Of a stretch of 64,000 bases of DNA, positions 4,421 through 64,000 are shown piece after piece. The notes beneath the pieces were generated by a model. That model was not told where the DNA came from. It saw only the letters and a program-made list of their open reading frames with translations, and ran no database searches. Within the stretch, counting starts at the first letter, position 1, and the number at the start of each line of letters is the position of its first letter. The stretch is from an uncultured Phenylobacterium sp. (GTDB lineage: Bacteria > Pseudomonadota > Alphaproteobacteria > Caulobacterales > Caulobacteraceae). Location: contig CBHTUE010000002.1 in NCBI GenBank assembly GCA_966096115.1, positions 9,162 through 73,161 of the forward strand, in the 5' to 3' direction. Position numbers and translations under genes: made by a program.

Positions 4421-6289
4421 TCAGGCTCCGTGCGCCCTGAGCGCGGCGCGGTCTGCCGGCGACAGGTCCATCGTGGCCGCGGCGCGCCACTTCGCCCGCG
4501 CCTCGTCCGTCCTGCCCAGCTTCGCCAGCGCCTCGCCCCACTTCAGGTGCAGGCGGCCCCAGCGGGGGGCGAGTTTGGCGGCTTCCGTGAACTTCGCCGC
4601 TGCGCCCTTGGCGTCGCCCTTGGCCAACAGGGCCTCGCCGGCGATCTCGGGGGGATCCGCGAAACGCGGCGCTCGGCGCTCGGCGACTCTCGCCCTGGCC
4701 AGGGCTCCGGCTAGGTCGCCGCGTGCGAGCAACGCCTGGGCCCAGGCGCTCTCGGCCCAGGCGCCCTTCGGGTCCGCCGTCGCCGCTCGGGCGAACCAGG
4801 CGTCGGCGCTCGCCGCGTCACCGGCCAGGGCCGCTATGCGACCGCGCACGATCAGGCTGTCGTAGCTATCGAGCGGCGCGGCGGCGATCCGCGCCCGCGC
4901 GGCGGCCGGATCGGCACCGCCGGCCAACGCCAGCGCCACCTGCGGCCCGACCTCTACCACGATGCGGTCGCGAAGCGCCGGGTAGCGGGCGGCCAGGGCC
5001 TCGGCCTCGGCCGCCGCGGCCAGAGCGGCGGTGACATCGCCTTCGGCCACCCGGACCTTCAGGCGCATCAGTACGGCGTCGTAGGCCCGCGCCACGGTCG
5101 TGCGCGCGCCGGCGGACGGATCGGGTCGCGCGAGGTCGGCGCGCGCCGCCGCGATGTCGTGCTGGGCCAGGTGCACCCGGACCAGCACACCCACCATGTT
5201 GGTGTTGGCCCCCTGGGACCCGGCCGCCACGATCCCCGATGCGGCGGCCAGGGCCTTCGGGAGGTCCGCGTCGGCCAGCGCGGTAATCACTTCGGCGCGA
5301 AGCCGGGTCACGCGCCGGTCGCGCACGTCGGCGCGGGGCGTATCGTTCGCCAGCGCCTGAGCGGCGGCGGCGCGAGCCGCGGCGGGATGTCCCATCTGGA
5401 GTTCGTTGAAGGCGATGTTGGTCGGCGGCAGCATCATCCACGGCGCGATGGCCTGCGCGGCGCGGGAATAGCGGATCGAGGTGGCGACACCCTCCGTGTC
5501 CAGCGCCGCGTTGGCGAGCCCGCTGAAGCCCCACGCCCGCTCCGCCGGCGGCCCCGCGCGGGCGAGACGACCGAATATCGCCGCGCCCACCAGCGGGTCG
5601 CCGTGCTGACGCTGCCATATGGCGTAGCGGTAGGGCTCAGCGCGGGCGAACGCCGCGTCACCCGCGGCGTCGATCAGACCCTCCAACTCGGCCTCCGCGC
5701 CCCGGGCCGTGACCCCAGGCTGCGCGGCGACACGCACGGTCAACGCGGCCGCCCCGCCGTGCAGGGCGACCTCGCCGGTGATGTGGGTCTCGTGACCGAG
5801 CCAGCCGCGCAGTTCCCGGTTCAGTTCGGCAATGGTCACGCCGGTCTCGGGAATCTCGATCCGCACGTCGCCATCCCAGGTGCGCGCGAAGCTGGACGGG
5901 GCGCGCTGGCTCGAGACCTGCGACTGCATCGTACTCATGCGGTCCAGCAGTCGGCTGGCCACGACCTGGCCGATCATCCCCTCCTGCGCCAGTGACGGCG
6001 GCACGGAGAAGGGTTCGATGATCAGGGCGTGCGCTCGCGACGCCTGCCAGATCAGCACGCCGAGCGTGGCGGCCAGAGCCAGACCGGCCAAACCCGTGAG
6101 CGCCTTGAGGGCGAATCCGGCCCGCTCGGAGGCGATCTGCCAGCGGATCAGCCGGCCCTGGTCGACGAGCAGCCGGCGAGCGGGACTGTCGGGGGCGGTG
6201 TCCTTCGCCTCCGCCTCCATGGCGATCTCGACGGCATCCGGCGTGGTGGGCGCGGGGTCGGGCTTGGGTCGAACGGGCCGCTTCGCCAT
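4421..6289 (-). CDS. Membrane-anchored TPR-like repeat protein (paralog A)
   Basis: ATG 6289 immediately after the upstream stop; N-terminal TM, Ala-rich helical TPR-like C-terminus ending PRWGRLHLKWGEAL. Confidence 0.75.
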   Translation of the reverse strand: MAKRPVRPKPDPAPTTPDAVEIAMEAEAKDTAPDSPARRLLVDQGRLIRWQIASERAGFALKALTGLAGLALAATLGVLIWQASRAHALIIEPFSVPPSLAQEGMIGQVVASRLLDRMSTMQSQVSSQRAPSSFARTWDGDVRIEIPETGVTIAELNRELRGWLGHETHITGEVALHGGAAALTVRVAAQPGVTARGAEAELEGLIDAAGDAAFARAEPYRYAIWQRQHGDPLVGAAIFGRLARAGPPAERAWGFSGLANAALDTEGVATSIRYSRAAQAIAPWMMLPPTNIAFNELQMGHPAAARAAAAQALANDTPRADVRDRRVTRLRAEVITALADADLPKALAAASGIVAAGSQGANTNMVGVLVRVHLAQHDIAAARADLARPDPSAGARTTVARAYDAVLMRLKVRVAEGDVTAALAAAAEAEALAARYPALRDRIVVEVGPQVALALAGGADPAAARARIAAAPLDSYDSLIVRGRIAALAGDAASADAWFARAATADPKGAWAESAWAQALLARGDLAGALARARVAERRAPRFADPPEIAGEALLAKGDAKGAAAKFTEAAKLAPRWGRLHLKWGEALAKLGRTDEARAKWRAAATMDLSPADRAALRAHGA

Positions 6290-6290
6290 C

Positions 6291-8168
6291 TCAGACCCCA
6301 TGAGCCTTGAGCGCGGCGCGGTCTGCCGCCGAGAGGTCCATCGTCGCTGCGGCGCGCCATTTCGCCTGGGCCTCGTCGGCCTTGCCCAGCTTCGCCAGCG
6401 CCTCGCCCCACTTCAGGTGGAGCCGACCCCAGCGCGGGGCGAGCTTGGCGGCGTCGGCGAACCTGGCCGCGGCGCCGGCGGCGTCGCCCTGGGCCAGCAG
6501 GGCCTCGCCCCACACCTCCGTCGGGTCACCATAGGCCGGCTGCTTGCGCTGGGCAGCGCCGGCCTTGGCCAGAGCGCCAGCGATGTCGCCCCGGGCCAGC
6601 AGGACGCGGGCCCAATCGGTCTCGCCGAACGGCAGCGCCGGATTCTGTCGTACCGCCTCGGCGAACCACCCGTCGGCGGCGCGGCGGTCGCCGGCGGCCT
6701 CGGCGACCTCGCCCCGGATGCGCAGGCACCGGTAGCAGTCACGCGGCAGGGTCGCGGCCACCGCCTGGGCCTCCGGCAGCCGCCCCATCCGCGCCAGCGC
6801 CAGCGCCCGCCAGGGGTCTCCGCTGGGCGCGTCCATCAGCGCCTGGGTCGGGTTGGTCGAGCCGGTGGCGAGGGTCTCCAGCACGTCCGGCCAGTCCTGA
6901 TCGGCGGCGGCGGCTTTGACCATCAGGGCGGTGCGGAAGGCCTCGCCGCGCGCGGGGGTGCGGCTGGCCTGCAGCATCAACGGGACTTCCCGACGCGCGT
7001 CGCCGATCCGGTGCAGGCCGATGAGGATGTCGATGTGGTCCTGCCGCGAGGAGAGGTCGTAGGAGCCCCGCATGCGCTTTTCCAGGGAAGGTGACACCTG
7101 CGCCTCGGCCGCGTTGTAGTCGCCGATCATCAGCGCGTGATGCATCCGGGCGTTCGACAGCTGCCGCGTCCGCTGGATGGCCGGGTCCACCTTGCGGCGC
7201 CGGATATCGGCCACAGCCAGGGCGCTCTGCTCGGCGGCGGCCTGATTGTGCCCCAGCCCGTGCTCGACAAACGCCAGAACGAGGCGCGCGTCCGGGGCGC
7301 CCAGCCGGATGGCTTCGCGCAGCTCAACCGCCGCCTCCTTGTTGCGGCCCAGCGACAGATAGAGCCCGCCCAGATTCCTGCGGGCGTCGCGAAGCTGAAG
7401 GTCCGACTCCGAGGTCGCGATCACCCTGGCGTAGACTCGCATCGCCGCGTCGGGCTGCCCGCGGTTGAACAGCACGCGGGCGTATTCGACCGGCCGGGCC
7501 TGGGCCAGGAGCTGCTCGGCGACGCCGGCGGCGAGGGCCGGCAGGTCGCCGACCGGGCCGGCGGCGCTGACCGTCGAGCCGCCGGGCGCGCGCGCCGCGA
7601 TCGCCATGCCGTCGGCGGTCAACGTGACCTCGCCGGTGATATGGGTCTCGTGGCCCAGCCAGCGCCGCAGGAGCCGGTCGACCTCGTCGAGGGAGAGGCC
7701 GGTGCGCGGGATCTCCACCTGGCTGCGGGTGCTCCAGCCATCCGAGAGTGAGAGCGACTGGGATGCGTTGGCCTCACCGTTCAGCCGGGCGAGCTGGTCC
7801 AGCACCGCGGCGGACACCGCCGTGCCGACCATGCCCTGACGGGCCAGCTCCGGCGGGACCGAGAACGCCTCGACCACCAGGCCGTCCGCCCGGCTGGCGT
7901 TCCAGGCCATGCCGACCAGCAGGGCCGCCACCGCCAGGCCGACGAGACCCGTCAGAGCCCGCAGCACGAAGCCCATGCGCTCGTTGTGGATCTGCCAGCC
8001 GATCAGCGCGCTCTGCCGGCGCAGCACCTCGTGCGCGATGCCCTCGGGCGGCACACCCGTGGCCTCGGCCTCCATGGCGATCTCGACGGGGTCCGGCGTC
8101 GTCGGGGCCGGCGTCTCGGCGCGGGCGCGCGGCTTGCGGGCTTTCGGCCGTTCCGTGGTCACGCGCAC
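6291..8168 (-). CDS. Membrane-anchored TPR-like repeat protein (paralog B)
   Basis: Same architecture as 4421..6289, sharing PTTPDxVEIAMEAEA and the C-terminal segment; GTG start at 8168 or 8162. Confidence 0.75.
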   Translation of the reverse strand: MRVTTERPKARKPRARAETPAPTTPDPVEIAMEAEATGVPPEGIAHEVLRRQSALIGWQIHNERMGFVLRALTGLVGLAVAALLVGMAWNASRADGLVVEAFSVPPELARQGMVGTAVSAAVLDQLARLNGEANASQSLSLSDGWSTRSQVEIPRTGLSLDEVDRLLRRWLGHETHITGEVTLTADGMAIAARAPGGSTVSAAGPVGDLPALAAGVAEQLLAQARPVEYARVLFNRGQPDAAMRVYARVIATSESDLQLRDARRNLGGLYLSLGRNKEAAVELREAIRLGAPDARLVLAFVEHGLGHNQAAAEQSALAVADIRRRKVDPAIQRTRQLSNARMHHALMIGDYNAAEAQVSPSLEKRMRGSYDLSSRQDHIDILIGLHRIGDARREVPLMLQASRTPARGEAFRTALMVKAAAADQDWPDVLETLATGSTNPTQALMDAPSGDPWRALALARMGRLPEAQAVAATLPRDCYRCLRIRGEVAEAAGDRRAADGWFAEAVRQNPALPFGETDWARVLLARGDIAGALAKAGAAQRKQPAYGDPTEVWGEALLAQGDAAGAAARFADAAKLAPRWGRLHLKWGEALAKLGKADEAQAKWRAAATMDLSAADRAALKAHGV

Positions 8169-8308: not shown

Positions 8309-10072
<1,764 letters not shown>

Positions 10073-53141: not shown

Positions 53142-54650
53142 TTAGGGCGACATGGCGGTCTTCAGCTCGCCCTTGGCGTAGAGGCCCTGGCCGATGACCT
53201 GGCCGTCGCGGCTCACCTCGGCCGCCGCGCCATCGAGATTGTCGGCCGCCCAGGTCCCGGTGAGAGACCGGCCGTCGCGCCAATGCAGCACGCCGTAGCC
53301 CTGCAGCTTGTCGGCCACCCATTGGCCGGCCTTGGCGGTGTAGTTGCGCGTCGGCCCGCCGGTATAGACGCCGTACTGGCGCGCGCCTTCGATGTAGGTG
53401 CCCGAGAAGTCGTCGCCGTCCGGATAGCGCTCGACGCCGCGCACGCGCACGCCGTTCTGCTGCACCCCCTCGAAGCTGCTCTTGTCGGCGAAGCGGACGA
53501 TGACGAAGCCGTGGCGCAGGTCGTTGACCCACTGGCCCTCCTGCCGCTCGCCGTCCTGGTAGACGTTGACGCCGTAGCCCTCGGCCTTGCCGTCCTTCGC
53601 CTGGCCGGCGTAGCGCCAGCTGTGGGTGGCGCCGGCGGCGTCCTTGTAGGATCCGGTGAGGATGAAATAGCCCGCGACCTTGCGCTCGGCCTTCTGCTCG
53701 GCGTCGCGCGCCTTGGCCGCAGCGGCGACGGCGGCGGTCTGCGCCAAGCGGCCCTCGTCGGCGGCGGTGGTGGCGGTCAGCTCCGCCCGCTTGGCGGCAT
53801 CGACGGCGTTCTGGACGGCCGGCGCATAGACGGAAGTCGGACGCGGCGGCGTGTAGGCCGTGGGCGCCGTCGCGACCTGGGTCGGCGGAATGAAGTAGAG
53901 CGGTTCGCCGCCCAGCGAGCCGTAGACGAACGGCTGCTGGCGGTTGGAGGTGTCGCGCAGCACGTCGTCGCCGACCTGGCGGAACAGCAGGCTCACCTCG
54001 ACGCCCGAGGCCGGCAACCGGCGGATCAGCGCTGCTGCGAACGGGCTGTGCTCGCCGCTTCCGTCGTCGGCCGTGGTGCCCTCGCGGGCGGCGAAGACCA
54101 CCAGGGTGTGTCCCAGCGGCTCCACGCGCGAGAGACCACGGCCCACGGCCCGGGTCCCGCCGCCCGATAGCTGCATCCCGGCCGCGAACGGGTTGTTGCG
54201 GCAGGCGTCCAGCATCACCAGGCCCAGCCGCCGCGCGCCACCCACGGCCTGCATCACCAGGTCCAACGGCACCGCCTCGAACTGCACGTCGGTGTTGGTG
54301 GCCAGCCGGGCGTCCACGGGCAGGAGGTAGTTCACCCCGCCCATCTCCATCCCGTGGCCGGCGTAGTAGATCACGGCCATGTCGGCGTCGCGGGCGGCGT
54401 TGGCGAAGGCCTGCAGCGCGCGGCGCATGCCCTGCTGGTCCAGGTCGGAAAGGACGGTCACGCTGCTGAAGCCCGCCGTGCGCAGGGCGGCGGCCACGGC
54501 CGGGCCATCGTTGGCCGGATTGGGCAGGCGCGGCACGGCCTTGTAGCCGGCGTTGGCGATCACCAGCGCCACGCGGGTGTCGGCCATGGCCGGCGTCAGG
54601 CTGAAGATCGCCAGCGCGAACGCCAGGACGGCGCGTAACAGGAAGCCCAC
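53142..54650 (-). CDS. Exported caspase-family (C14) peptidase with MORN-like repeats
   Basis: Signal peptide; RVALVIAN..Y, YYAGHG and LDACRNNP His/Cys dyad; C-terminal YAGQ..DGK..GYGV / QEGQWVNDLRHG repeats. Confidence 0.85.
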   Translation of the reverse strand: MGFLLRAVLAFALAIFSLTPAMADTRVALVIANAGYKAVPRLPNPANDGPAVAAALRTAGFSSVTVLSDLDQQGMRRALQAFANAARDADMAVIYYAGHGMEMGGVNYLLPVDARLATNTDVQFEAVPLDLVMQAVGGARRLGLVMLDACRNNPFAAGMQLSGGGTRAVGRGLSRVEPLGHTLVVFAAREGTTADDGSGEHSPFAAALIRRLPASGVEVSLLFRQVGDDVLRDTSNRQQPFVYGSLGGEPLYFIPPTQVATAPTAYTPPRPTSVYAPAVQNAVDAAKRAELTATTAADEGRLAQTAAVAAAAKARDAEQKAERKVAGYFILTGSYKDAAGATHSWRYAGQAKDGKAEGYGVNVYQDGERQEGQWVNDLRHGFVIVRFADKSSFEGVQQNGVRVRGVERYPDGDDFSGTYIEGARQYGVYTGGPTRNYTAKAGQWVADKLQGYGVLHWRDGRSLTGTWAADNLDGAAAEVSRDGQVIGQGLYAKGELKTAMSP

Positions 54651-58439: not shown

Positions 58440-58529
58440 GGTGACGTGGCCGAGTGGCTGAAGGCAACGGTTTGCTAAATCGTCATACGTGAAAGCGTAT
58501 CGAGGGTTCGAATCCCTCCGTCACCGCCA
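58440..58529 (+). tRNA. tRNA-Ser (anticodon GCT)
   Basis: Acceptor stem GGTGACG/CGTCACC plus GCCA end, D-loop GCCGAGTGG, anticodon loop TTGCTAA, long variable arm, T-loop GGTTCGAATCC. Confidence 0.97.
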
Positions 58530-58731: not shown

Positions 58732-60456
58732 CTAGCCCCCGCGGAACAGGCGTCGGCGCGTCGCCTCTTCCGTCCAGTGTTCCTCGTGAACCCGTTCGAG
58801 CCTGATGGCCGCTTTGACGACGTTCTGGAGCGCCTGCAGCGTAGGCTCCGGCCCGATCGTCGCGCGGAGCGCCTGGAGGCTCTCGACGAGCGCCTGACTC
58901 CGCCGCGCCTGGTCGGAAAGCGAGAGCGTCGCCTCCAGCGCCAGGCACGCGGCCCCGATGGCCGGGACGATGGCGCCGGCCATGATCACCACCCCTCCCA
59001 GCCAGTGCGGCGTCTCGAAATCGAGGAATGCGGCCGCCGCTGCGAGCAGCACATAGCTGCTCAGGATCAGCAGCAGCAGGGCGAAGCTGGCGTTTTCCAG
59101 CAGGTGGACCCGATGCGAGATGCGCCCGTTGATGCGCCACTGATCGCGATGGTAGGCGGCTTGCCCCCCGATCAGTTCGTCGATCGCCCAGCCGCCCCAG
59201 GTCCGCACGCGCTCCGCGTCGAACCTGCCGCTCGGCAGGCCGACGTTACGCCGGATGTCGCGCGCGGCGGACGGCCGATGCGCCTGGGCGCCGTGCCCCC
59301 CGGCGCTCACGCCCAGGGTCCAGGCCGCGCGTTCCAGGCGCAGCTGCTCGGCGAGCTGGCGCGCGTCGCCCCATCGGTGATGGCGTGCGCCACGCTCTGA
59401 ATCCAGCCAGACCAGCAGCGCGCCGATGGCGAGCGCCAGCTCGATCGTCACCATGGCAAGCTTCAGTTGCGGCCAGACCGCCGACGCCGATCCGGCGATC
59501 GCCGCGAGGATGGCGACGCCGAGGAGAATGACCTGATGCGACCTGTGGATGCCGCCCAGCACCTGGGCCTGACGGCCGGCGCGGTCCCGGGCGCGGGTCA
59601 GCGCGATGAAGCCCGGCTGCGCCGACAGATCCGCCGGCGGCGCACGACGCTCGAAGGGTGACGCCTGGCCCCCAAGCACACGACGAAACAGGGCGTAGGT
59701 GCGCCACGGCCACCTCAGGCGCGGCGCGGGCCCGTCGTCCTCCCCCTCTCCCGTCTCCGCATCGTGCTTCGGGCGAGTTCCGCCCAGGCCGAGGTCGAAG
59801 AGGGCGGCGCGCAGCGCCTCGGAGCTCGCCGGCTGGACCAGAGGCGCCCGATCCAGTCGCAGTTCGTCGAGGAACTCCAGGAAACCGAAGTCTTCGTCGA
59901 GGTGCTCGGGCCGGATGATCCGGATCGACGCTGGCGCGCCGGGGCGCACCCAGAGGACGGGGATGCCGTGCTCGAGCGCCAACCGCACGGCGTCGGCTGT
60001 GCCGCCGGCGCCCCGCGCATGCTGGCCGGTCCAGACGACCACCAGCATGTCGGCGGCGCCGATCATCCACAGCGCCTGGGTGAGGTGCGGATTGCGCCCG
60101 ATGGCGCGGGTCGCCGCGCCATCCAGCCACGTCGACGATTCCACCAGGTCCGCCGCTTCGCGCGGGGCCACATCGTCGAGAAGCGGCAATACCGCATGAA
60201 CCGGACCGAGGCCCGCCGCGCGCCAAGCGCGGATCGCCAGGACGTCCGACCCCGGGGCCGCGCCCGTCAACAGGCGCGCCGCACCGACGCCGGCGTCGCG
60301 CAGCATCGCGAACGCTGTCTCCAGAGCCGCGCCGGCCGCCTCGGGATCGCCGAGATCGCCGGACCGGTTGTGTCCGGCAAAGGCGACCTGAAGGAAGCCG
60401 ATATGATCGGGCGAAGTCTCCGGCGCATCACTCCGTGCCGAACCACGCCCGCTCAT
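58732..60456 (-). CDS. SLOG (YspA/LOG/DprA-fold)-like domain fused to two 2-TM SLATT-like modules
   Basis: FAGHNR, LLTGAAPGSD, DMLVVVWTG..ARGAGGTADAV..A...GIPVLWV; then HRSHQVILLGVAILAA...RWGDARQLAEQLR and GQAAYH...VPAIGAA...ARRS segments with 4 TM helices. Confidence 0.7.
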   Translation of the reverse strand: MSGRGSARSDAPETSPDHIGFLQVAFAGHNRSGDLGDPEAAGAALETAFAMLRDAGVGAARLLTGAAPGSDVLAIRAWRAAGLGPVHAVLPLLDDVAPREAADLVESSTWLDGAATRAIGRNPHLTQALWMIGAADMLVVVWTGQHARGAGGTADAVRLALEHGIPVLWVRPGAPASIRIIRPEHLDEDFGFLEFLDELRLDRAPLVQPASSEALRAALFDLGLGGTRPKHDAETGEGEDDGPAPRLRWPWRTYALFRRVLGGQASPFERRAPPADLSAQPGFIALTRARDRAGRQAQVLGGIHRSHQVILLGVAILAAIAGSASAVWPQLKLAMVTIELALAIGALLVWLDSERGARHHRWGDARQLAEQLRLERAAWTLGVSAGGHGAQAHRPSAARDIRRNVGLPSGRFDAERVRTWGGWAIDELIGGQAAYHRDQWRINGRISHRVHLLENASFALLLLILSSYVLLAAAAAFLDFETPHWLGGVVIMAGAIVPAIGAACLALEATLSLSDQARRSQALVESLQALRATIGPEPTLQALQNVVKAAIRLERVHEEHWTEEATRRRLFRGG

Positions 60457-60637
60457 GCCTCGTCGCCCCTCGCTGCCGAATGTGGCTCCAGCCGCCCGCA
60501 AATCGAAACACCCCGGCGCACGCCCTAAGGCAAGCTAAGGCGGACCAGAGCAGCCACCAACCGCGCTCAACGCCTAGCCTTACCCATCCCGCCTGATTGC
60601 GCTACCGTCGTTCGTCCGGGGGGAGTGCGTAGCGCCT

Positions 60638-62851
60638 ATGAGGGATCGCGGTAAGCGGCAAGCCGTTCCGGATCCAGCTGGGATCCCACCGCTCCGTGTC
60701 GCGATCGTAGGTGGCGGCTGCGCCGCCATGACCGCCGCGTTCGAGCTCTCGCGCCCGGAGCACAACGGCCGCTACGCCGTCACGGTCTACCAGGAAGGAT
60801 GGCGCCTCGGAGGCAAAGGGGCGTCGGGCCGGGGCCCTTCCGGCCGGATCGAGGAACACGGCCTGCACGTCTGGCTGGGCTACTACGACAATGCCTTCCG
60901 GCTGATGCGCGAGTGCTACGCCGAGCTGGCGGCGGCGGAGCCGCCCTCGCCGTTCGGCGATTGGCGCGAGGCGTTCACGCCGGAATCCGACGTCGGCCTG
61001 TTCTCGCCCTCAGAGCAGCAGGGCTGGCAGGTCTGGCGGGGTCGCTTCCCGGAACAGCCGGGCCTCCCGGGAGACCCGCTGGCGCCGGGCGAGCTGTTGT
61101 CCCTGTCCCGCTACGTCGCGCGCACCCTGTCCCTGCTGCGAGCCCTGGTCCTGGACTGCCGGGTCGAAACCGGCAGCACGGAAGCCTTCACGGCCCAGGG
61201 CTCCGAACCGCCACCCGACCCACGGCCGGACCCCCGCAGGCTCACGGAGAGGCTCAACGACCTGGCCGGACTGGGATCGTTCGTCGCCGCCGCCACGCTG
61301 GCGGAGGCGCTGGGGGCGCTGGCCGCCGTGCTGAACAGCCCGACGGCCAGGCCAGGACGCGCCTGGCTGACCCTCGCCGACGACCTCTGCCGCAGGCTGC
61401 GGGGCTGGCTCGAGGACACCCTGATCGCCAGCGGCCGGCATCGGCACCTTTGGGAGATCATCGACCTCGCCCTGGCCTATGTCGTCGGCGTGTTCCGCTT
61501 CGGGTTGCTCACGGACCCGAGGGGCCTGGACGCCATCGACGACTACGAGTGCCGCGAATGGCTCGCGCTCAACGGGGCGTCCGAGCGGGCTCTGCAGTCG
61601 CCGTTCGTGCGCGGCATGTACGATCTGGCGCTCGCCTACGAGGACGGCAAAGCGGAGCGGCCGAGGCTGTCCGCCGGCCAGGGCCTGCGGTCGACCATGC
61701 GCATGTTCTTCGGCTATCGGGGATCGATCTTCTGGCGGATGCGCGCCGGCATGGGCGACGTCGTCTTCGCGCCCCTCTACGAGGCGCTGCGCCGCCGCGG
61801 CGTCCAGTTCGAATTCTTCCACCGCCTGACGAACGTCGGCCTGGCCCCGGGCGGCGAGCTGGCGCCGGGCGACCAGACCCATGTGCAGGAGCTCGTCTTC
61901 GACGTTCAGGCCGACGTGACGGGCGCTCAGCCCTATGCGCCCCTGGTGTCGGTCGCGGGCCGACCCTGCTGGCCCAGCCAGCCGGATTTCGGCCAGCTCG
62001 TCGATGGCGACCGCCTGGCCGAGGCCGGGGGGGATTTCGAGTGCCACTGGCAACGCCACCGCGTCCGCACCCGATCGCTGAGCGTCGGCCACGACTTCGA
62101 CTTCGTCGTCCTGGGCGTCGGCCTGGGCGCGATACCGCATGTCTGCGGAGAGCTGCTGCAGCGCGACGCACGGTGGCGGCGGATGACCACCGAGGTGAAG
62201 ACCGTGGCGACCCAGGCGTTCCAGATCTGGCTGCGAGAGGACCTGGATCAGCTCGGCTGGCCGGGGTCGCACCGCCTCGTCGCCGGGTTCGTGAAGCCCT
62301 ACGACACCTGGTGCGACATGGGCCACGTCGTGTCCCAGGAGGCTTGGCGGTCGCCGCCGCGCACCGCCGTCTACTTCTGCTCGGTGCTCGAGGACCCGCC
62401 TGAGCCGCCGTCGGACGACGATGTCGCCTACCCCGAGCGCCGCGCCGCGGAGGCCAGGGCCAACGCCGAGGCGTTCCTGGACGGACCCGCCCGGCTCCTG
62501 TGGCCCAGGGCCTACGACGCGGGCGGGAGGTTTCGGTGGGAGCTCCTGGCCGATGCGCGCGACTGCCCGAAGCACGTCCCCCCTACCGGGACGGGCCGGT
62601 TTGCCAGTCAGTACTGGCGCGCCAACGTCAATCCGTCCGACCGTTACGTGCAGAGCCTGCCCGGCACGGCGCGGCGCCGCATCTCTCCCCTGGACATGAC
62701 CTACGACAACCTGACCATCGCCGGCGACTGGACGGATTGCGGCTTCAACGTGGGCTGCGTCGAGGCTGCGGTCATGTCGGGGCGTCTCGCCGCCCACGCG
62801 CTGTCGGGGTCACCCGCACTTGAGGACATCGTCGCCTATGACCACCCCTGA
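60638..62851 (+). CDS. FAD/NAD(P)-binding oxidoreductase of the phytoene desaturase/ZDS/HpnE clan
   Basis: VAIVGGGCAAMTAAFEL, WRLGGKGASGR, EEHGLHVWLGYYDNAF, LTIAGDWT...GCVEAAVMSG. Confidence 0.8.
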   Translation: MRDRGKRQAVPDPAGIPPLRVAIVGGGCAAMTAAFELSRPEHNGRYAVTVYQEGWRLGGKGASGRGPSGRIEEHGLHVWLGYYDNAFRLMRECYAELAAAEPPSPFGDWREAFTPESDVGLFSPSEQQGWQVWRGRFPEQPGLPGDPLAPGELLSLSRYVARTLSLLRALVLDCRVETGSTEAFTAQGSEPPPDPRPDPRRLTERLNDLAGLGSFVAAATLAEALGALAAVLNSPTARPGRAWLTLADDLCRRLRGWLEDTLIASGRHRHLWEIIDLALAYVVGVFRFGLLTDPRGLDAIDDYECREWLALNGASERALQSPFVRGMYDLALAYEDGKAERPRLSAGQGLRSTMRMFFGYRGSIFWRMRAGMGDVVFAPLYEALRRRGVQFEFFHRLTNVGLAPGGELAPGDQTHVQELVFDVQADVTGAQPYAPLVSVAGRPCWPSQPDFGQLVDGDRLAEAGGDFECHWQRHRVRTRSLSVGHDFDFVVLGVGLGAIPHVCGELLQRDARWRRMTTEVKTVATQAFQIWLREDLDQLGWPGSHRLVAGFVKPYDTWCDMGHVVSQEAWRSPPRTAVYFCSVLEDPPEPPSDDDVAYPERRAAEARANAEAFLDGPARLLWPRAYDAGGRFRWELLADARDCPKHVPPTGTGRFASQYWRANVNPSDRYVQSLPGTARRRISPLDMTYDNLTIAGDWTDCGFNVGCVEAAVMSGRLAAHALSGSPALEDIVAYDHP

Positions 62852-63659
62852 CGCCCCAAGCGGCGCGGCCGCGCAACCCGAGCCCGGCCGGCCTCGCGCC
62901 AAGCGGCCGACGCCGGCCCGCGATGCGCCCCGCCGCGGCTATGGTCCCGAGCCTGCGGCGCCGGCCTCGCCCGATGCGGCGGCCAGCGCGGCCTCGGCGT
63001 CCGAGGCGATCGCCCACGCCGTTCGGCTGGGCTACTCGGTGATCGGCGAGAACATCGCCCAGGGTCGCGAGGCGGCGAGCGCGTTCCGGGCCGGCGACTA
63101 CCGGCCCGACAAAGCCACCGAAGACCTCAAGGCCGTGGCCTCGCGCATGCTGCAACTCACCCGGGAGCTCAGCACCCTGTCCTTCGACGTGCTGGAGCGC
63201 CTCGTGCAGGACCCGGCGGCCCGGGGGGGCGGCGCGCCGGCGAGCCCCCCGCCCGCCCCCACCGGCGGCGACCCCGCGACGCGGCCGGCCCCGGGTCCCT
63301 TCCAGGCCGGCGATCCCCCCGCCGGACCCGTCGAGGCCGCGAAGGCCCCGGCGCCGCAGGCCACGCCGCACGTGGAGCTGACCTGCAGCTTCAGTGGCGG
63401 CCGGGCCGTCCTGAAGGCCGGCGCCCTGTCTCGCCCCGACACGCCGGTGTTTCTCGTAGTGCCGGCGCTCACCGCCATCGAGCCTGGCCCGCCGACCATC
63501 ACCGGTGAAGTGACCTTCACCCCGGCCGCCAGCGGCGACGGCCTCGTGGCCAACATCAAGATCCCGGAGGGCCAGCCCCCGGGTCTCTACAGCGGAGTCA
63601 TCTGCGTCTGGGACACGGGCATCCCGATGGGCATGCTGACGATCGAAGTGCTCGCATGA
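62838..63659 (+). CDS. Hypothetical protein (Pro/Ala-rich linkers, helical segment, beta-rich C-terminal domain)
   Basis: Start overlaps the oxidoreductase end by 14 nt; stop overlaps the next ATG (ATGA); IKIPEGQPPGLYSGVI beta-strand pattern. Confidence 0.7.
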   Translation: MTTPDAPSGAAAQPEPGRPRAKRPTPARDAPRRGYGPEPAAPASPDAAASAASASEAIAHAVRLGYSVIGENIAQGREAASAFRAGDYRPDKATEDLKAVASRMLQLTRELSTLSFDVLERLVQDPAARGGGAPASPPPAPTGGDPATRPAPGPFQAGDPPAGPVEAAKAPAPQATPHVELTCSFSGGRAVLKAGALSRPDTPVFLVVPALTAIEPGPPTITGEVTFTPAASGDGLVANIKIPEGQPPGLYSGVICVWDTGIPMGMLTIEVLA

Positions 63660-64000
63660 TCCGCGAGCCTCCCGACGCCTTCGACGCGCCCCGGGCGGAC
63701 GGCGAGCTCATGTCGTCGCTGCTGGCCGAATACGGCGCGGCCACCCGGGAGACCCTTCAGCGCTACCTCCGCCGCGAGCGCCCAGCGCCCTATCTCGACG
63801 ACCTCATGGCGGACTATCCCGCGCGGGGCGGCAAGATGATGCGCCCCAGCCTGTGCATCGCCAATGCGCGGGCCTTCGGCGGACGGCTCGACGACGCGGT
63901 GAGGAGCGCCGCGGCCATCGAGCTCCTCCACAACGCGCTCCTGGTGCATGACGACATCCAGGACGGCAGCGAGACCCGACGCGGACGCCCGACCTTGCAC
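63656..64000 (+). CDS. Polyprenyl diphosphate synthase (trans-IPPS), N-terminal part; truncated by window end (not in ORF track)
   Basis: Manual translation from ATG 63656: ...YPARGGKMMRPSLC...AIELLHNALLVHDDIQDGSETRRGRPTLH (GGKxxRP, first DDxxD motif, RRG). Confidence 0.92.
   Translation, partial: MIREPPDAFDAPRADGELMSSLLAEYGAATRETLQRYLRRERPAPYLDDLMADYPARGGKMMRPSLCIANARAFGGRLDDAVRSAAAIELLHNALLVHDDIQDGSETRRGRPTLH

Follow-up and report, generated by a model that had tools for sequence, protein, structure and literature searches.

A gene on the minus strand of a 64,000-nucleotide stretch of an uncultured Phenylobacterium sp. genome (contig CBHTUE010000002.1, positions 9,162 to 73,161; the whole stretch is called the window here) encodes a protein of 574 residues in which a SLOG-fold domain is followed by four transmembrane (TM) helices, hereafter the SLOG-4TM protein. 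The explanation that accounts best for it, and one that is reasonably likely to hold, is that the gene encodes the effector component of a nucleotide-signalling system that is based on TIR and resembles Thoeris; its ligand, its pore activity and a role in defence we infer by analogy. This reading draws on the architecture of the protein, on the recurrence of TIR genes beside its relatives, and on a large TIR protein encoded just beyond the window whose orthologs abut SLOG-4TM genes in other genomes.

Architecture of the SLOG-4TM protein

The N-terminal domain is assigned to the SLOG superfamily on its predicted fold and its motifs. The full-length AlphaFold2 model (predicted local distance difference test, pLDDT, 89.4; predicted template modelling score, pTM, 0.87) has an alpha/beta domain at residues 20-225 that a short disordered stretch connects to two helical hairpins, both flanked by long cytoplasmic helices; the N-domain modelled alone has a pLDDT of 88. 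Its Foldseek matches in the PDB include TM1055/LOG, DprA, the Moco carrier protein, LOG, YgdH and TRPM5 at probabilities of 0.97-1.0 and E-values down to 1.3e-5. SLOG-superfamily structures make up the best 17 of these matches (E<=6.4e-4, probability 1.0) and almost the whole of the top 50; the SLOG domain of BcThsA bound to 3' cyclic ADP-ribose (3'cADPR; 7uxs) is also matched, and TRPM2, 4, 5 and 8 are among the fold matches of the protein. In the viral library the annotated fold matches are YspA/cpYpsA-related SLOG, DUF2493 and LOG proteins, and a YspA-like domain is our best guess at the subfamily. The first-pass annotation, which had been made from the sequence, had proposed a YspA-like SLOG sensor domain, and the domain-only fold matches bear this out, with profile models staying below threshold. 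Faint SLOG-profile matches appear in three of 59 relatives (YAcAr in two, E=0.06; DprA in one, E=0.05), and sequence searches of the PDB with the SLOG-4TM protein gave no match.

The motifs quoted by that annotation are all present in the intact reading frame: AFAGHNR at residues 25-31, TGAAPGSD at 64-71 and VVVWTGQHARGAGGTADAV at 139-157. Among 59 aligned homologs G28, H29, G65, G69, D71, W142, G144, G151, G152 and D155 are invariant and T153 is nearly so; across 28 distinct loci the signature motifs are likewise invariant or nearly so. By comparison with the LOG motifs, TGxAxGxD and RGxGGTADAV presumably lie at the Gly-rich nucleotide pocket, which is putative here. The same signature recurs in divergent SLOG-4TM proteins encoded beside sensor orthologs (see below), where it was read in L049 and L050 from the WDG..GGT.D part only, and in stand-alone actinobacterial relatives. 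Departures from the usual GHR and WDG had been taken as a possible sign of an altered ligand. GHNR does differ from the GHR of the stand-alone actinobacterial proteins and is nearly invariant in the family, and it is a lineage variant of the SLOG-clade signature which those proteins carry; WTG is weak evidence of an altered ligand because its T is not fixed, being T, N, S, D or G among the 59 homologs. The stand-alone proteins (L037-L043, Actinomycetota) are SLOG proteins of ~180 residues belonging to the same clade, with GHR, GAD and WDG..RG.GGTADAV motifs, and are possibly separate-subunit versions of the sensor domain; TIR-containing open reading frames (ORFs) occur near their genes in L039, L042 and L043.

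The membrane half carries four TM segments by hydropathy and two hairpins in the AlphaFold2 model, as the first reading of two helical 2-TM units had it. A two-TM hairpin with flanking cytoplasmic helices is a trait of SLATT proteins and is present twice. Unit A matches SLATT_3 (E=1.5e-3), DUF4231 (E=2e-3) and NCBIfam SLATT_1 (E=1.7e-3), and unit B scanned alone matches SLATT_1 (E=1.2e-3), all below the curated cut-offs. At the level of the family the match is broader: DUF4231 matches 54 of the 59 members and SLATT_3 matches 37; the distant relative P0141 passes the Pfam DUF4231 cut-off (25.0 vs 24.7 bits); and a precomputed PF14015 annotation is attached to about 12 homologs. The divergent homolog of L049 passes NCBIfam SLATT_1 (50 vs 41 bits) with its best stretch on unit B, and a unit-B profile matches residues 535-639 of this protein at ~1e-10. 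DUF4231 is a member of the SLATT superfamily (PMC9812332). SLATT-type identity is thus well supported for unit A, and for unit B it is supported through transitive evidence and topology; the proposal of SLATT-like effector modules holds in that relatives pass curated cut-offs, also on unit B, with the window protein itself below threshold. Because the scores of the hidden Markov models (HMMs) are sub-threshold, the predicted membership in both superfamilies draws partly on fold, topology and transitive evidence. An internal duplication of unit A and unit B was considered and rejected as not significant (hhalign match of 24 columns around HRSHQ/HRVHQ, E=0.008, probability 5%).

Distribution and selection

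A word-indexed search recovered 227 homologs, nearly all of 550-600 residues, full-length and labelled 'hypothetical', with those that bear an organism name coming from Phenylobacterium or Caulobacteraceae. An exhaustive HMMER search returned 1234 representatives at E<=1e-3, whose named distant homologs are also from Caulobacterales. The gene is carried by 16 of the 301 species genomes of the taxonomic family and by 5 of its 27 genera, and is therefore regarded as accessory. It is under purifying selection: the ratio of non-synonymous to synonymous substitution rates (dN/dS) is 0.19-0.22 in the window's clade (against L014 and L015) and 0.16-0.25 in another SLOG-4TM clade, one without partners.

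TIR partners of the family

Neighbourhoods were compared over the 28 distinct SLOG-4TM loci and gene content over the 301 genomes. A TIR ORF is found in the flanks of 18 of the 28 loci, and lies within ~6 kb of the SLOG-4TM gene in 7 of the 15 other carrier genomes; the clade of TIR domains to which the sensor described below belongs is represented in 13 of 16 carriers vs 51 of 285 other genomes (Fisher p=2e-7). Genomic association with a nucleotide-signal generator, a trait of the SLATT superfamily, is thus present here.

At 11 distinct loci the SLOG-4TM gene forms a trio, arranged in either of two gene orders, with genes for a membrane-anchored TIR protein of ~300 residues and a lipoprotein of ~178 residues; that the three are kept together in so many loci and in both orders argues for a functional link. 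The trio loci are L008 (TIR 6021-6947; lipoprotein 8843-9379), L001, L006, L007, L017, L019, L021, L022, L024, L025 and L035. The trio TIR protein has a TIR domain that is more than 85% conserved, a linker, one TM helix and a Pro/Ala-rich periplasmic tail ending in DDVPY, and the lipoprotein has no family match; their combination suggests envelope-sensing TIR signalling. In the protein tree the window copy, L014 and L015 group with the clade that carries the trio in forward order (support 100/100). The window's own genome has no ortholog of the trio TIR, only a TIR-domain match of 31% identity, and a lipoprotein homolog on contig C325 (47% identical) was rejected as a displaced partner, its ilvC/arfB/clpB context being that of a housekeeping paralog.

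In seven further loci a TIR profile identifies large TIR ORFs directly beside the SLOG-4TM gene. These are TIR-TPR proteins in L030, L033 and L034, a TIR-TM-TPR protein in L026, a TIR-NB-ARC protein together with a second TIR in L027, a protein with TIR only in L023, and, in L020, a close relative of the window's clade, an ORF with TIR and a cyclase-like region that is divergent from the SLOG-4TM gene. A Glu, putatively catalytic as read from the sequence, stands at the expected S..W...E position in both partner types compared (SEWVRSE in the sensor TIR, SEEMNKE in the trio TIR); the partner TIRs match NCBIfam ThcB4 weakly, at 37 and 27 bits vs a cut-off of 220.

The probable sensor

A TIR_2 search of the genome found no TIR inside the 64-kb window, in agreement with the first-pass annotation, which had seen neither TIR nor cyclase there; the closest TIR gene is found a short way past the end of the window. 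The 5.2-Mb genome holds four TIR_2 ORFs, and this one encodes a TIR-cyclase-STAND-TPR protein of 1124 residues (Table 1), called here the sensor. Its gene is on the same contig and strand as the SLOG-4TM gene, and its 3' end is 6.6 kb upstream of the SLOG-4TM start. No other TIR of its clade occurs in the genome; it lies 6.6-10 kb from the SLOG-4TM gene, and the chance of its lying within 10 kb of that gene is roughly 0.4%.

Orthologs of the sensor are full-length, with 43-48% identity over ~1070-1130 residues. In G042 (L047), which is of another genus, the sensor (43% over 1074 residues) is encoded head-to-head with a SLOG-4TM protein 46% identical to that of the window; in G249 (L049), G139 (L050) and G155 (L051) sensors of 45-48% identity abut, tail-to-tail, divergent SLOG-4TM genes for proteins of 640-680 residues. 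Since its orthologs abut SLOG-4TM genes in these four genomes and it is the sole TIR of its clade in the genome, the sensor is the most likely cognate signal generator of the SLOG-4TM protein. The notion that the sensor mostly occurs without an effector was rejected when divergent SLOG-4TM genes were found beside its orthologs; it does stand alone in L052. Identity of the TIR domains (55-57%) was dropped as an argument for partnership, the TIR clade being expanded, and full-length sensor orthology was used instead. In genera g25 and g22 one TIR clade is greatly expanded: a genome of 3-4 Mb may hold up to 13 or more members, most of them TIR-x proteins of ~550-650 residues, and tandem arrays are frequent.

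The body of the sensor resembles NCBIfam TOMM_kin_cyc (E=1.8e-128, below the cut-off), with TIR replacing the kinase. Its cyclase domain has Gly at the first metal-binding Asp, and every ortholog is without at least one of the two Asp residues, at positions taken from the class III consensus. Because the cyclase-homology domain is thus without a metal-binding Asp and the TIR keeps the expected Glu, the TIR is the plausible catalytic output of the sensor. The idea that the cyclase is degenerate only in TIR-bearing forms was rejected, since it is degenerate also in a TIR-less paralog of the sensor on contig C15 (G000:C15:29180-32062; L059:5037-8510, minus strand; 40-47% identical). Within 5 kb on either side of that paralog there is no SLOG-4TM gene, TIR or flavoprotein operon.

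The three remaining TIR proteins of the window's genome (G000) have ~630-670 residues and are encoded on contigs C37 (L011, L012) and C46 (L013). Two have a predicted TM helix, and their tails are TPR-like by eye, with no TPR reported by Pfam. The C37 pair is 38-40% identical over ~510 residues to the TIR protein encoded directly upstream of the SLOG-4TM gene in L026. This makes the pair possible additional signal sources in trans.

Relation to known systems

In Tables S1 and S2 of the preprint of Yirmiya et al. (bioRxiv 10.64898/2025.12.03.692087), 'SLOG and 4TM' or '4TM SLOG' is listed as a candidate Thoeris effector. The SLOG-4TM protein appears to fit this class by architecture, the published effectors being compared by description only. 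Shared features are the SLOG domain with four TM helices, the TIR-adjacent genes and the predicted response to a TIR-made signal. The candidates there form two-gene TIR + effector operons in Streptomyces and Nitrospira; here, adjacency to a TIR gene is found in many relatives, whereas in the window's genome the sensor stands at 6.6 kb with a lipid-type operon between. The TIR domains of the two listed candidates do not resemble the trio TIR to any meaningful degree (E=45 for one, E=0.003 over 23 residues for the other), and a check of the motif strings of the present TIRs against the part of Table S1 covered gave no match. TIRs in Avs-type proteins were removed in that study, which may therefore have missed STAND-type sensors like the present one. 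In the literature, SLOG binds 3'cADPR in ThsA, and cADPR is the signal that SLATT effectors of type VII Thoeris answer to.

Among the established types, type VII Thoeris pairs a ThsB TIR protein with a SLATT effector, ThsH, through canonical cADPR, and shares with the present system a TIR generator and a SLATT-family membrane effector; ThsH is thought to oligomerise and breach the membrane. It differs in that here a separate SLOG domain is fused ahead of two SLATT units. In type I Thoeris the SIR2-SLOG protein ThsA uses SLOG as the receptor for a TIR-made ADP-ribose (ADPR) derivative, a use that is putative here; the SLOG-4TM protein has no SIR2, its C-terminal half being four TM helices with a membrane output, and the STALD-type SLOG of ThsA ranks below LOG, DprA and YspA-like folds among the matches of the N-domain. 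The type III effector is a DprA-type SLOG protein that acts with several TIR proteins, and DprA ranks high among the fold matches of the N-domain; an NCBIfam scan of the SLOG-4TM protein, however, gave only SLATT_1 and SLATT_3 and no Thoeris model, type III included. The protein is thus neither of type I (no SIR2) nor of type III (no NCBIfam model match).

The SLATT/DUF4231 and SLOG superfamilies reportedly go back to Burroughs et al. 2015, as cited in later papers. Compared with the superfamilies at large, the present family is a lineage-restricted fusion (Caulobacterales) with two SLATT units, and its SLOG clade lies outside all Pfam SLOG models. The TRPM2-type channels, whose N-terminal SLOG-like MHR1/2 domain binds ADP-ribose, likewise join a SLOG-fold domain to a membrane permeation module; this is an analogy of logic only, since only the SLOG fold is matched and the TM modules, a six-TM channel vs 2x2-TM SLATT, are unrelated. 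The logic predicted for SLATT proteins is that of 2-TM pore-forming effectors that respond to nucleotide signals and are linked to SLOG, SMODS and TIR (PMC7159879, PMC9503650, PMC9812332).

The intervening operon

Five plus-strand genes, from 60638 to L046:10234, occupy the interval between the SLOG-4TM gene and the sensor and include genes for a flavoprotein and a polyprenyl synthase (Table 1). The 279-residue protein encoded second is in the same position in most operon loci (L015, L049-L051, L053, L055, L056, L058). Flavoprotein orthologs are encoded beside sensor orthologs with 58-67% identity in G155, G249, G139 and G181 and 52-53% in G169; the operon is head-to-head with the sensor in G249, G139 and G155, co-directional and ~140 bp downstream of it in G181 and G169, and near another TIR protein in G107. 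It stands beside TIR-cyclase-STAND sensors in at least six genomes, in several arrangements. The SLOG-4TM gene is head-to-head with the operon in the window and in the close relative L015, and in L030 a distant flavoprotein gene (32% identity) follows the TIR-TPR gene that adjoins the SLOG-4TM gene. The operon occurs alone, without TIR or SLOG-4TM gene, in L056-L058, and most SLOG-4TM loci are without it. The tightest link in these comparisons is that of sensor and operon, with SLOG-4TM joining where the sensor carries a TIR. Whatever the STAND-TPR part responds to may be made or altered by the operon, but this is speculation. In the g25 and g22 expansion genomes a TIR ORF is present within ~5 kb for at least 13 of the 42 matches to the flavoprotein family.

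Proposed mechanism and alternatives

If the SLOG-4TM protein is such an effector, a trigger received by the sensor part would activate the TIR, which would convert NAD+ to an ADP-ribose-derived signal. The SLOG domain would bind this signal, as ThsA binds 3'cADPR, and binding would change the conformation of the 4-TM module or make it oligomerise; the predicted topology is four TM helices with both termini cytoplasmic. The module would then make the inner membrane leaky, leading to depolarisation, growth arrest or cell death; this permeabilisation step is modelled on proposals for CBASS SLATT effectors and for ThsH of type VII Thoeris.

A number of observations weigh against this reading. No Pfam or NCBIfam SLOG model reaches threshold on the window protein, and it stays under the cut-offs of SLATT_3 (19.3 vs 26.3 bits), DUF4231 (14.4 vs 24.7) and SLATT_1 (25.2 vs 41). 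The TIR gene is not adjacent to the SLOG-4TM gene of the window, five genes of opposite strand lie between them, and co-regulation is not evident. One sensor ortholog, that of G204, is without a SLOG-4TM gene or the operon in its vicinity, and G181 and G169 carry operon and sensor with no SLOG-4TM gene seen in the DNA available there. The clade of genus g24 is without an adjacent TIR, and the complete genomes G078 and G106 are without any TIR_2 while the gene is under purifying selection; TIR is for this reason neither a universal partner nor the sole signal source. The SLOG-4TM neighbourhoods consist mostly of ordinary metabolic genes, with no recognisable defence islands. PADLOC 2023 has no model for the SLOG-4TM protein and a PADLOC search gave no match, and neither of the two published candidates of the 'SLOG and 4TM' class conferred defence on E. 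coli (bioRxiv 10.64898/2025.12.03.692087).

These neighbourhoods of housekeeping type, together with the operon link, make a non-defence role in membrane or lipid signalling a serious rival, though on balance an improbable one. The STAND-TPR part would then monitor an isoprenoid-type lipid product or state of the cassette, the TIR would produce a nucleotide signal, and the SLOG-4TM protein would be a regulated channel or transporter that tunes the permeability of the membrane or the flux of ions. The operon beside TIR-cyclase-STAND sensors in several genomes, the distant flavoprotein of L030 and the pointer to envelope sensing given by the membrane-anchored TIR and lipoprotein of the trio are all consistent with it. 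What it accounts for less readily is the patchy distribution of the gene and the swapping of its TIR sensors (trio TIR, TPR, NB-ARC, STAND), both typical of conflict systems, and the loose tie to the operon, which is found without TIR or SLOG-4TM gene and is missing from most SLOG-4TM loci.

Distinctly less probable is that the SLOG domain is a membrane-anchored enzyme of LOG or DprA type that degrades, converts or generates a nucleotide signal, with the 4-TM half as anchor or scaffold. The closest folds do include catalytic LOG phosphoribohydrolases, RGxGGTADAV parallels the LOG motif PGGxGTxxE, and same-clade stand-alone SLOG proteins lie near TIR genes in actinobacteria. As the motif is read here, however, the position of the catalytic Glu of LOG is Ala; the TM half matches SLATT effector families and not generic anchors; and the SLOG of type I Thoeris is a sensor.

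Very unlikely is a reading in which TIR is irrelevant and the role of the SLOG domain is to detect a product of the divergent operon, either isoprenoid-derived or of another kind that is not a nucleotide. The head-to-head arrangement in the window and L015, the co-location of SLOG-4TM gene, sensor and operon in G249, G139 and G155, and the lineages that have the gene without TIR would fit such a role, but most family members have TIR and no operon nearby, and in the three-way loci outside the window's clade it is the sensor that the operon abuts. To our knowledge, moreover, known SLOG ligands are nucleotides or nucleotide-like cofactors. An orphan relic that has lost its TIR partner and its function, as the missing adjacent TIR and the trio of the sister clade (with no ortholog of its TIR in this genome) might suggest, is scarcely credible for an intact ORF that keeps every signature residue, has a dN/dS of ~0.2 across its clade and lies 6.6 kb from a TIR sensor of the cognate type.

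Setting of the gene

The ORF is intact, and an alternative TTG start at 60501, 45 nt upstream of the ATG, would give 589 residues (+15); a GAGG-type stretch lies 5' of the ATG. The G+C content of the gene is ~70%, equal to that of its surroundings. In the intergenic region shared with the divergent flavoprotein operon (60457..60637) neither a sigma-70 consensus site nor a palindrome was found; the region is unconserved relative to the close relative L015, and no shared operator was found. The tRNA-Ser gene 200 bp downstream was rejected as an island boundary, there being no G+C shift, no integrase and no tRNA beside the gene in the relatives checked. Elsewhere in the window (53142-54650, minus strand) is a gene for a caspase-like (Peptidase_C14) protein of 502 residues whose N-terminal part has a signal-like hydrophobic segment and whose C-terminal part carries MORN repeats; it gives a weak match to PADLOC 'caspase' (E=1.2e-6).

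Table 1. Features of the SLOG-4TM locus, in window positions unless stated otherwise
Feature	Position	Strand	Remarks
SLOG-2xSLATT (SLOG + 4TM) protein gene	58732..60456	-	574 residues, ATG start; stop codon 58732-58734
Cytoplasmic SLOG-fold domain (predicted)	59782..60402	-	residues ~19-225; motifs GHNR, TGxAxGxD, W[TND]G..RGxGGTADAV; small C-terminal alpha/beta extension
SLATT-like unit A	59257..59634	-	residues ~275-400; cytoplasmic helix, TM1 (306-329), TM2 (331-353), amphipathic helix
SLATT-like unit B	58735..59229	-	residues ~410-574; long helix, TM3 (452-481), TM4 (484-514), C-terminal cytoplasmic helices
tRNA-Ser (anticodon GCT)	58440-58529	+	200 bp downstream of SLOG-4TM gene
Divergent intergenic region, SLOG-4TM gene / flavoprotein operon	60457..60637		181 bp
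Amine-oxidase/PDS/HpnE-like flavoprotein	60638..62851	+	737 residues; first operon gene; Pfam Amino_oxidase, NAD_binding_8; N-terminal HpnE-like match
279-residue protein	62820..63659	+	second operon gene; no Pfam or NCBIfam match
Polyprenyl synthase like geranylgeranyl diphosphate (GGPP) synthase, 5' part	63656..64000	+	353 residues; runs off window
orf492, orf374	beyond window, after polyprenyl synthase	+	two paralogous unknown proteins, 492 and 374 residues
TIR-cyclase-STAND-TPR sensor	window-equivalent 67101-70475 (L046:10263-13637)	-	1124 residues; TIR_2, Guanylate_cyc, AAA_16, TPR_MalT; outside window

Significance

Nucleotides made by TIR domains are immune signals in bacteria, plants and animals. 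Three features are new here: a TIR sensor of STAND type (NLR-like), the separation of sensor from effector, and the isoprenoid-type cassette that travels with them. A single effector family apparently draws on TIR sensors of widely differing build (membrane-anchored TIR plus lipoprotein, TIR-TPR, TIR-NB-ARC, TIR-cyclase-STAND-TPR), as would be expected of a common output module. An apparent 'orphan' effector can also have its partner a few kb away across an unrelated-looking operon, and strict adjacency searches miss such pairs.

A more elaborate form of the preferred reading, which must be called doubtful, is a three-part system in which a STAND NTPase with a TPR sensor, a dead cyclase and an N-terminal TIR would be tied to the lipid cassette, and a TIR-made NAD derivative would open a SLOG-gated 4-TM channel. 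If true, it would be a bacterial counterpart both of the plant sequence from TIR-NLR through a small molecule to a membrane channel and of the ADPR-gated TRPM2, and would connect TIR immunity or signalling with a metabolite of isoprenoid type. Should the link between sensor and cassette be functional, it would open a way to find the stimulus of such STAND proteins and would give a model, in bacteria, of how a TIR-NLR signals to a membrane channel. The 'SLOG and 4TM' effector class has been predicted and is as yet unvalidated; to it the window locus adds a diversity of sensors and the link to the cassette.

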